In this document: piece by piece, positions 25,901 through 28,900 of the stretch
How the letters are laid out: each line of letters starts with the position of its first letter
Position numbering within the stretch: position 1 is the first letter of the stretch
Assembly (NCBI RefSeq): GCF_017348835.2
Contig: NZ_CP071375.1
Direction: 5' to 3' (one strand)
DNA from: Escherichia coli
Lineage (GTDB): Bacteria > Pseudomonadota > Gammaproteobacteria > Enterobacterales > Enterobacteriaceae
DNA length: 64,000 nucleotides
Made by a program: the position numbers

Positions 25901-28900
25901 CGTACACGTCACGAAGGCGCTGCGATTCCGACTCCCGCTGTGCCTGACGGTCCGTCAGCCCCCGGGCTTTTGCGCTGATTGCAGCCTGCTTCGCACTCTG
26001 CTGCTGTTCAAACCGCACAGCCTGATTTGCCAGCTCATTCAGCCGTTTCTGGTATTCAACCTTGTCACCCAGGTCAGCCAGCTGGCGTTTGTACTCCAGC
26101 GTCTCTTGCTCATGGGCCAGCAGGGATTTCTCCTGTGCAGACAGCTGGCGACGTTGCGCCGCCTCCTCCAGTACCGCGAACTGACTCTCCGCCTTCCACA
26201 AATCCCGGCGCTGCTGGCTGATTTTCTCATTCGCTCCGCTGTGCTTCTCCAGCGTCCGGAGCTCGGTTTCAAGCGCCAGCAGCGCCGCATGCGTCAGGTC
26301 TTCCTGACGCTCACCGGCTGACACTTTGACTCCTGACGACTTCGGCTTTTTCAGCGTCGATTCATAATCCTTTTTCGCCGCCGCCATCAGCGTGTTGTAA
26401 TCCGCCTGCAGGATTTTCCCGTCTTTCAGGGCCTTATTCAGCTCTTCCTGCCGGTTAGTATATTTCTCCAGCGGCGTCAGCAGACGCTCATACGCCTTCT
26501 GCGCCTCTCCGGTATACTTCAGCTGTGATGCGTCCCGTTCGGCCCGGTCCCTGGTAGCCAGTTCACCGGCTTTTTCCATATCCGACTGCAGCGTGGCCGC
26601 TGCCAGCCCCAGACGGGCATTTTCCCGGTCATCCCATGCGCCCTGCAGGTTGGCACGGAAAGAGGAGGTCTTTCCCCGGCGCTGGCTCCGGCTCTGGTAC
26701 CACTGCCATTTTTTATCCGCCTCATCGAATGCCTTCTGCGCACTGGCAAGCATATCCGCTGAGGATTCCGGACGACCAATATCCAGAATGGCATCCCACA
26801 TCGATTTGAACGCCTTCCCTGTTTTATCCGCCCAGGTCTCCAGCGTCCCCATGTTTTCTTTCAGGCGACGGGTCTGCTCATCAAAGCCTTTCGTGGCAGC
26901 ATCGTTCGCCGCCTGTAAGGCCCCGGCCTCATCACCGGAACGCTGCAGCTGCGCAACATACGCAATCTGCTCTGCCGTCACGTTACGGAACTGGCGCGCC
27001 ATCGCCATCAGCCCCGACGTCGGGTCGGTGGTCAGTTTTCCGAAAGCCTCTGCAACCTTGTCCACCTCCACACCGGATGCAGAAGCAAAACGCGCGACAC
27101 TCTGGTTGATGGCATCAAACTGTGCACCACCACGCACACCGACATTCACCAGGGCTGCCAGTGACTCACTCGCCTGGTTAAACGTCAGCCCTGCGGCCTG
27201 TCCGGCTCTGGAGAGCGTCAGCATGCGATCGGCAGTCAGTCCGGACTGATTACCGGAAAGAACCAGGGTTTTATTAAACGCTGAAAGCGTGGAATCCCCC
27301 TGGTACCAGGCGTACGCCAGCGCACCTGTCGCCACCGCCAGCGAGGTGACCCCGACCATCGGCAGGGTGATCGTACCGGCAAGTCCCCTGAACATGGGGA
27401 TCATCCCGCCGAAGGAGTCCTTCACCTGACCGCCCTGTTGCAGCAGGATCAGCCAGGGATTCTGACCACCGGCAAGCTGCGTGGCGATATCCGTAAACTG
27501 TGCGGGCAGGGTTCGCATGGCCGCTTTATACTGCCCGACGGAAATCCCGGCTTTTTGTGCAGCCAGCGCCTGACGACTCAGGTTCTGCTCAACGACACCG
27601 ACGGTTTTTCTGGCGTCAGTCTCCAGTCCGGAAAAATGACGCCTTACCCGGCTCATCTGCTCATCGAAACGGACCGCATCCAGACTCAGGTCAATAACAA
27701 GATCACCAACCGGCTGGGACATATCTCACACCTCCCGGAATCCCCGCTGAAGCCATCATTAATGCGACATCATCCTCGCTGACATCCGCCACATCCGCAG
27801 ACGATAAAATCTCACGCCCTCCGTCCCCACCAAACCGTACGCCTCCGGCAAGTCCTGCCGCTTTCTGCATCAGCATTTTTTCCTCATCCGGCATCTCCGT
27901 CTGCGCTTTCTCACGCCGGGGGGCAAGCAGACTGAAATCAGAGGGATGCATATCCGGATCGCAAAAAAACAGGCTGAGTACGGCGTACGTCAGCCCGGAA
28001 AAATGCATATCCAGTTGGGTATCGTGAAAATAATGCGTACGGTAAAAATGTCGCCAGTCGGCATATTCGGTGGATGTCATCCCGGCAAGCATGGCGCGCC
28101 AGTCAGGCCTCCCCATCTCACGCGCCAGTCTGAGGGCAAAATTCAGCTCGCCGTCGAAGACTTTCCCGCAGAAAAATCATCATCAGTCAGCGCGTTATAT
28201 TTCGCCACTTCGGTGCTGTCAGTATCCGCATGAACAGCCCCGCTCATCCCGGACAGACGCAACACCACATCTTCCGCCCGGGCAATGGCATCCGCAGGCC
28301 AGGTGGTGAGCACTTCCTGTTCGATCTGCATCACAGCCTCATTCATTGACGGTGATGCCGTTTTCTGCGGATGGTTATGCCACAGGGACATCGCCACCAG
28401 AAACGCGCCGGTTCTGACGAGATCTTCCACGCTTACCTGCAGGTTGCCGCTGGCTTCCGCCTCTTCTGCCCGCCGTTTCAGGAGGGCAAGATGCTCAATA
28501 CGCTGCAGCGCAGACAATTCGGAAAGCGTGACAGACACACCGTTATATTCAAATTGTTCTGTTTTCAGAAACATGTATTACCTCCGTTTACCCTGCAGCG
28601 CCCGCTTCAGTAACGGTGACTTCAGCCACTGCGGCGAACTGACCATTTCCGCTCACCACAGGGATCTGCACCTTACCTGTCGCCACGCCGTTTACCGTAA
28701 TTGTCATATCTTTCACACTAATGGTGGCTTTCGACGGATCGGCGGAAACCACTCTGAACGTCTTGTCGGTTGCACTTTCCGGCTCAAAAGAAACCGTCAG
28801 GGTGGTTGTTTTCCCTTTTGCCACCGTACCGGATGTCGGCGTCACCTTAATCGCAGTGACCGGCGTAATTTTGCTGCGTTCTTCCGCTACAGAAGGTTTG

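Follow-up and report, generated by a model that had tools for sequence, protein, structure and literature searches.

The −1 programmed ribosomal frameshift between genes G and T of phage lambda was reportedly described by Levin, Hendrix and Casjens in 1993 and by Xu, Hendrix and Duda in 2004, 2013 and 2014. The lambda frameshift site is GGGAAAG, at which about 96% of ribosomes keep the zero frame, and modification of U34 of tRNA-Lys tunes the ratio (PMC3296357). A G:GT ratio of about 30:1 is critical to assembly of the tail in lambda, where G attaches to the tape measure protein, the T domain brings in the tail tube protein and the virion contains neither of the two; G-T frameshifting is also widely conserved (PMC5009743). 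Here we describe the counterpart of this site in a 64,000-nucleotide (nt) stretch of Escherichia coli DNA (RefSeq assembly GCF_017348835.2, contig NZ_CP071375.1; the whole stretch is referred to as the window, and coordinates are window positions unless another record is named). The heptamer G GGA AAG at 28167..28161 on the minus strand is almost certainly the G/GT tail-assembly-chaperone −1 recoding site of a lambda-like prophage in E. coli. The feature is already known, being the −1 programmed frameshift of G/GT in a form identical to that of lambda, and there is nothing new in it. G/GT frameshifting is textbook recoding, conserved across long-tailed phages, with little consequence beyond annotation; the practical output of our analysis is an annotation correction, as the coding sequence (CDS) of the GT fusion is missing from RefSeq for this sequence.

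The G-T junction and its counterparts in lambda and other phages

Gene G, encoding the tail assembly chaperone, lies on the minus strand at 28574..28143 (ATG 28574..28572, stop TGA 28145..28143) and is preceded by a Shine-Dalgarno (SD) sequence GGAGG (28580..28584, minus strand; duplex with the 3' end of 16S rRNA of −10.8 kcal/mol). Its zero-frame product, gpG, has 143 amino acids (aa). In reverse complement, the end of the G open reading frame (ORF) reads ...GAT TTT TCT GCG GGA AAG TCT TCG ACG GCG AGC TGA. The slippery heptamer stands in X XXY YYZ phase (its first G is the third base of a codon in the G ORF), and five sense codons separate AAG from TGA, which makes AAG the sixth codon before the G stop. 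The −1 frame is open from 28176 through the heptamer and continues for 152 codons to a stop at 27705-27703; this T segment (28161..27703, minus strand) forms the C-terminal half of a predicted gpGT fusion of 290 aa, join(28574..28161, 28161..27703) on the minus strand, in which 138 G codons through AAG are followed by the −1 frame. According to a codon-by-codon listing, the sole stretch in which the G frame and the T frame are both open is a shift window of 31 nt (28176..28146, minus strand), bordered at its 5' side by TGA TGA TGA in the −1 frame (28185-28177) and at its 3' side by the G stop (28145-28143). These 31 nt contain no canonical slippery heptamer other than GGGAAAG, which occurs once in the G-T region, on the minus strand.

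Both halves of the fusion belong to the expected families. Against Pfam, the G ORF matches PF06894 (Phage_TAC_2, lambda tail assembly chaperone G) over residues 1-121 with E = 2.9e-50, and the fusion matches PF06894 together with PF06223 (Phage_tail_T, minor tail protein T; E = 6.8e-13). Against NCBIfam, the G part scores 161 bits for the equivalog TIGR01674 (cut-off 74) and the T part of the fusion 201 bits for the equivalog TIGR01715 (cut-off 77). No sequence match at E ≤ 0.01 was found in the PDB when solved structures of G or GT were sought. The neighboring genes are also those of a lambda tail module: directly upstream of G is the major tail tube gene, a V homologue of 250 aa (29340..28588, minus strand; PF16461 Phage_TTP_12, E = 6.3e-69, and Big_2), and the end of T overlaps by 20 nt the start of the tape measure gene, an H homologue of 859 aa (27722..25143, minus strand; PF06791 and PF09718; SD sequence GGGAGG, −11.6 kcal/mol). 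The gene order is thus the canonical V-G-T-H, all on the minus strand.

We aligned the lambda record J02459 (positions 8900-13200) with the window at the G-T junction. The lambda heptamer lies at J02459 10109-10115, and G GGA AAG of the window has the same sequence, phase and position; the lambda junction reads TCTGCGGGAAAGTGTTCGACGGTGAGCTGAGTTTTGCC and the window junction TCTGCGGGAAAGTCTTCGACGGCGAGCTGAATTTTGCC, with a 13-nt core, TCTGCGGGAAAGT, common to both; neither the phase nor the spacing to the G stop differs. The window therefore carries lambda's exact slip-site variant. Identity to lambda is 68% in the G part (up to the slip site) and 72% in the T part (−1 frame). In the five-codon overlap between the heptamer and the G stop, the window differs from lambda by two substitutions, both of which are silent in the −1 frame (GTG to GTC and GGT to GGC) and both of which alter the residue in the zero frame (Cys to Ser and Val to Ala), and because of this we read the selection in the overlap as acting on the T frame. 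Lambda G/G-T (J02459 9711-10549) is like the window in heptamer, phase, stop distance, V-G-T-H order, the overlap of T with the start of H, and Pfam and NCBIfam families. The two differ in size (G has 143 aa in the window vs 140 in lambda, and GT 290 vs 279), in an acidic linker at about residues 110-134, directly ahead of the slip site, whose sequence in the window is unrelated to that of lambda, and in the C-terminus of T, which is four residues longer in the window. None of these differences is mechanistic.

The original prediction, made from the window alone, had placed G GGA AAG in the G frame six codons ahead of its stop, with an open −1 frame leading into a T-like ORF and the lambda recoding signal preserved. 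The heptamer is where it was said to be (28167..28161, minus strand; AAG sixth before TGA), the 152 codons of the −1 frame carry the T families PF06223 and TIGR01715 and are 72% identical to lambda T, and the alignment with lambda bears out the preserved signal (TCTGCGGGAAAGT, phase and stop distance are identical). The span given for the feature, 28143-28574, is exactly the 143-aa G ORF, but it leaves the T part (27703-28161) outside and the minus strand unstated. The site had also been offered as an internal check that the region is accurately sequenced. Its seven preserved bases do vouch for themselves, but for the region the inference is weak; better evidence comes from the exact identity of positions 25000-30500 of the window to a complete RefSeq genome, that of E. 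coli PE164, and from the genes G, T, H and V, each of which is intact and has the length expected.

The heptamer by itself is unremarkable: GGGAAAG occurs 11 times on both strands of the window, as compared to about 8 expected for a 7-mer over 128,000 positions. The full configuration is rare. Among 101 ORFs of at least 100 aa called mechanically in the window, there are 95 in-phase XXXYYYZ heptamers, and only four of them lie at most 30 codons from the stop and have at least 60 codons open in the −1 frame. Apart from the site in G there are three such heptamers, at least one of which is in a shadow ORF overlapping the real gene hprS. As far as checked, the G site is the only one for which both joined ORFs have family support.

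By homology with lambda, the site would work as follows. Most ribosomes translating G on the minus strand would stay in the zero frame at G GGA AAG and terminate six codons further on, yielding gpG (143 aa). A small fraction would slip back by one base, with the P-site tRNA-Gly re-pairing from GGA to GGG and the A-site tRNA-Lys (mnm5s2UUU) from AAG to AAA; in lambda this fraction is about 4%, which corresponds to G:GT of about 30:1. The slipped ribosomes would then read 152 further codons in the −1 frame and produce gpGT (290 aa). The G part of both proteins would be expected to coat the tape measure protein and the T part of the rare fusion to recruit the tail tube protein, and neither gpG nor gpGT would end up in the virion.

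The junction is conserved well beyond lambda. Among 80 close relatives in viral contigs, 79 have GGGAAAG in place; in the exception (L004, contig positions 1890-1915), a single T is missing from the T5 run immediately 5' of the heptamer, so that the heptamer is no longer in phase, and there are further frame breaks. Another relative (L005) has a frame break inside T. The broken G-T genes of these two belong either to decaying prophages or to draft-assembly errors. This first scan of viral contigs gave almost one lineage only, so a tblastn panel and a second, profile-seeded scan were added for diversity. All 185 phage records matched by the fusion protein align with it in two pieces, i.e., in two frames, at identities from 92% down to 35%. 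In the unique junctions from the divergent panel and the profile-seeded scan, a lysine A-AAG/A-AAA slip site is present at the homologous position in 48 out of 48, the heptamers being GGAAAAG (25 junctions), GGGAAAG (16), AAAAAAG (2), and GGCAAAA or GGAAAAA directly before TAG (5). Across these loci (L084-L092 and L096-L175) the type of slip site varies and its position is kept, and the invariant element is the lysine A-AAG/A-AAA slip. The records of N15 and phi80 explicitly annotate their sites as slippery sequence.

Compared with these described systems, the window is closest to lambda. The sites of Stx1 and Stx2 phages (Stx1_1649 and Stx2_499) have the same architecture, with five sense codons to the G stop and a T part closely related to that of the window, but their heptamer is A AAA AAG in place of G GGA AAG. 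N15 gp14/15, the G-T genes of phi80 and the mEp460/Fels-1 type have homologous G and T proteins (35-46% identical) and a slip site at the homologous position with the invariant Lys A-AAG slip; unlike the window, they have the non-canonical heptamer G GAA AAG, and a small group has G GCA AAA or G GAA AAA with TAG directly behind it. Past the slip site, the zero frame of these systems runs on for 0-5 codons. Outside tail genes, the sites of E. coli dnaX and of IS3-family transposases resemble that of the window in using a −1 tandem slip that ends on an A-AAG lysine codon. The A-AAG lysine codon at such sites is read by the single tRNA-Lys of E. coli.

To measure selection, we used 53 distinct haplotypes that are at least 85% identical to the window. 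G in frame 0 has a ratio of non-synonymous to synonymous polymorphism (pN/pS) of 0.17, and T in frame −1 one of 0.54, as compared to 2.0–2.3 in wrong-frame controls (2.0 for T in the wrong frame). Read in the −1 frame, the 15 codons between the slip site and the ATG at 28116, the start of T in the RefSeq annotation, show 20 differences, every one of them synonymous. At the level of sequence comparison, these counts show purifying selection in the −1 frame that starts at the heptamer.

We note a further feature of the T proteins. The C-terminal motif LM..A.G..GGVR(F/Y) is present in two copies in T of the lambda, window and Stx1 types (27703-27900, minus strand, in the window; alignment columns 245-300) and in one copy in T of the N15, phi80, mEp460, Fels-1 and Providencia types; the second copy of the lambda-type T is thus lacking from the N15, phi80 and mEp460/Fels-1 systems. 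To judge from the alignment, the second copy resembles an internal duplication, about 35 residues long, in the terminal part of T, where it overlaps the tape measure start.

Present-day use of the site and alternative readings

Sequence comparisons demonstrate the anatomy of the site and its homology; they also show that T lacks a start of its own and that the −1 frame is under purifying selection from the heptamer onwards. Several points nevertheless weigh against reading it as a working recoding site. Slippage at this locus, its efficiency and the chaperone function are things we infer from lambda. The pN/pS of T is just moderately below 1. RefSeq/PGAP, on the identical DNA of PE164, gives "phage tail assembly protein T" as a CDS separate from gpG and without a slippage join. 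In addition, late-gene expression may not be normal, given an IS3 element in the late operon between Q and the holin gene and an integrase that bears a frameshift flag in the identical PE164 copy.

The last two of these points are the basis of the alternative that survives best, although we regard it as unlikely: that the slip signal is an intact relic of a defective prophage, kept by recent descent and not by current use. The IS3-family element (42277-43587, plus strand), placed within the late operon between the Q antiterminator gene (47083-47772) and the holin gene (41725-41931), might impair late-gene expression; besides the flagged integrase, the identical copy in PE164 has ydfD and terB-like genes that are pseudogenes; and decay has struck relatives at this very spot, as the 1-nt deletion in the T5 run of L004 and the downstream frame break of L005 attest. 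Against a relic, the head and tail ORFs in the window are all intact, including that of the terminase large subunit (37732..35804, minus strand; 642 aa), whose protein is 96% identical to terminase A of phage PhiR12_1; the G, T, H and V genes are identical to those of PE164; and purifying selection is seen across the 53 haplotypes. From general knowledge of lambda late transcription, Q-modified RNA polymerase can pass insertions, and it would presumably do so in this prophage as well. This alternative bears on the present-day use of the element, not on its identity. The slip site and the V, H and terminase genes are all intact, a sign that this prophage, a carrier of effector genes (nleB2/nleC/nleH/nleF), could still have a working tail module. 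Current expression of the tail genes is in doubt because of the IS3 element in the late operon and the flagged integrase; the identity of the element as the G/GT recoding site is unaffected.

It is very improbable that T is an independent gene starting from the ATG at 28116..28114 (minus strand) and that the heptamer is incidental, even though PGAP annotates a separate T CDS from this codon (27703..28116, without a slippage join) and several phage records do likewise. The ATG lacks an SD sequence, the best anti-SD duplex upstream of it being −2.3 kcal/mol as compared to −10.8 kcal/mol for G and −11.6 kcal/mol for H. The methionine at 28116 is replaced by Phe in the homologues from N15, phi80, mEp460, Fels-1 and Providencia, within a conserved LARE(M/F)GRPDWR motif. 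Conservation at the protein level in the −1 frame begins at the heptamer, i.e., it includes the 15 codons before the ATG, and these cannot be reached by any start codon: no ATG, GTG or TTG was found in the −1 frame between its TGA stops (28185-28177) and the ATG at 28116. The ATG at 28116 is thus probably not a real initiation codon, and T has no independent start. In lambda, no free gpT was reportedly detected by Levin et al. in 1993. With frameshifting at the heptamer as the route to T, the annotation has a simple consequence: G and a 5'-truncated T are listed as separate genes, so that the protein set has no 290-aa GT protein.

A shift elsewhere in the 31 nt open in both frames, for example by single slippage of tRNA-Phe on the T5 run in GAT TTT TCT (28180-28172), where this tRNA could re-pair at −1 and where the 1-nt deletion of L004 arose, or by transcriptional slippage, deserves next to no credence, since the T5 run is not conserved (GTT TCT in lambda, unrelated sequence in other lineages), the heptamer position is kept in 48/48 junctions, and runs of three A or five T are, by general knowledge, too short for efficient slippage of RNA polymerase.

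Search for stimulatory elements

The dnaX and IS3 sites are high-frequency sites with strong stimulators, which may lie upstream (an SD-like element), downstream (a hairpin or pseudoknot) or on both sides; no convincing stimulator was found at the G-T site. Upstream of the heptamer in the window, no SD-like stimulator was found, the best anti-SD duplex in the preceding 23 nt being +0.5 kcal/mol, and no Rfam family matches the junction at E ≤ 1. Downstream, a two-tier stem-loop can be drawn from 8 nt after the heptamer. The stability of the 100 nt following the heptamer has a z-score of −1.74 as compared to dinucleotide shuffles, and of −1.43 and −0.56 as compared to two protein-preserving synonymous null models. 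An alifold consensus of six sequences has a covariation term of just −0.28 kcal/mol. Pair counting over 11 sequences gave 83% paired as compared to 32–44% in slid controls; this covariation signal is partly circular because the structure was derived from those same sequences. A downstream stimulatory RNA at the window site was accordingly rejected, given its ordinary stability, slight covariation and a signal that is heterogeneous in relatives. The signal appears to consist of the heptamer alone, and to be of the low-efficiency type.

In some G GAA AAG lineages (the phi80-like L085, L088 and L089; L174 and L175; L153 and L154), the downstream mRNA is unusually stable, with z-scores from −2.1 (or −2.4) to −4.3 against protein-preserving synonymous null models, whereas other lineages with the same G GAA AAG heptamer have no extra downstream stability (z up to +1.3). 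The lineages with the canonical heptamers G GGA AAG and A AAA AAG, the window included, are without such stable downstream RNA. One could suppose, with considerable doubt, that downstream mRNA structure is tuned in this chaperone family to offset differences in the slipperiness of the heptamer, an idea that concerns the relatives and not the window's own site. If it were true, the heptamer and a stimulator particular to each lineage would together determine the G:GT ratio, with the lambda-type site at the "structure-free" end of the spectrum.

The surrounding prophage

The prophage of the window is lambdoid and occupies the serU tRNA-Ser site, with yodB on one side and mtfA on the other. The window and PE164 are not identical: only positions 15462-42277 match the PE164 prophage at 3.03 Mb with 99.97% identity (7 mismatches and 2 single-base gaps), and a difference of about 1 kb (an insertion or deletion) separates the two near 14408-15462. 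The right part of the window (40001-64000) matches PE164 at 1.87-1.90 Mb, on the opposite strand and 1.1 Mb away, and the breakpoint lies at the IS3 copy. The order in the window is K-12-like (yodB ... serU/mtfA/asnT). From these matches, it appears that either PE164 carries an inversion mediated by IS3 or by the prophage, or the window comes from a close relative.

The large terminase subunit of PE164 has a "frameshift" that corresponds to one base missing from its record at window position 37677 (GCTGCAGCGC vs GCTGCGCGC). We considered whether the terminase of the window is frameshifted too and rejected this, the single base being absent only in the PE164 record and the ORF in the window being intact.

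The IS3-family element in the late operon has a −1 frameshift of its own, between orfA (42280-42657) and orfB (42591-43544, in the −1 frame), and contains an ALIL frameshift pseudoknot (42612-42728, plus strand; Rfam, 120 bits). The same annotation pipeline that lists G and T separately joins the transposase frameshift of this element in the window.

Downstream of Q are three tRNA genes (46624-46873, minus strand), Arg-TCT, Arg-TCG and one with a CAT anticodon, which ARAGORN calls Met and PGAP calls Ile (lysidine-type Ile2). We take this trio to be the usual ileZ-argN-argO set of Stx-like phages. Rfam matches at gathering level include the sok antitoxin RNA next to hokD (50169-50343, minus strand), the small RNA STnc100 (45681-45853, minus strand), the DicF antisense RNA in the dicB region (57423-57474, plus strand), and rseX in the chromosomal flank (1125-1214, plus strand). 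According to the PE164 annotation, a sodC moron (Cu/Zn superoxide dismutase; 22074-22601, plus strand) lies between J and the tail-assembly-I genes, and a type III effector cluster of nleF, nleH, an nleC fragment and nleB2 (12789-15946, minus strand) is found at the tail-fibre end of the prophage.

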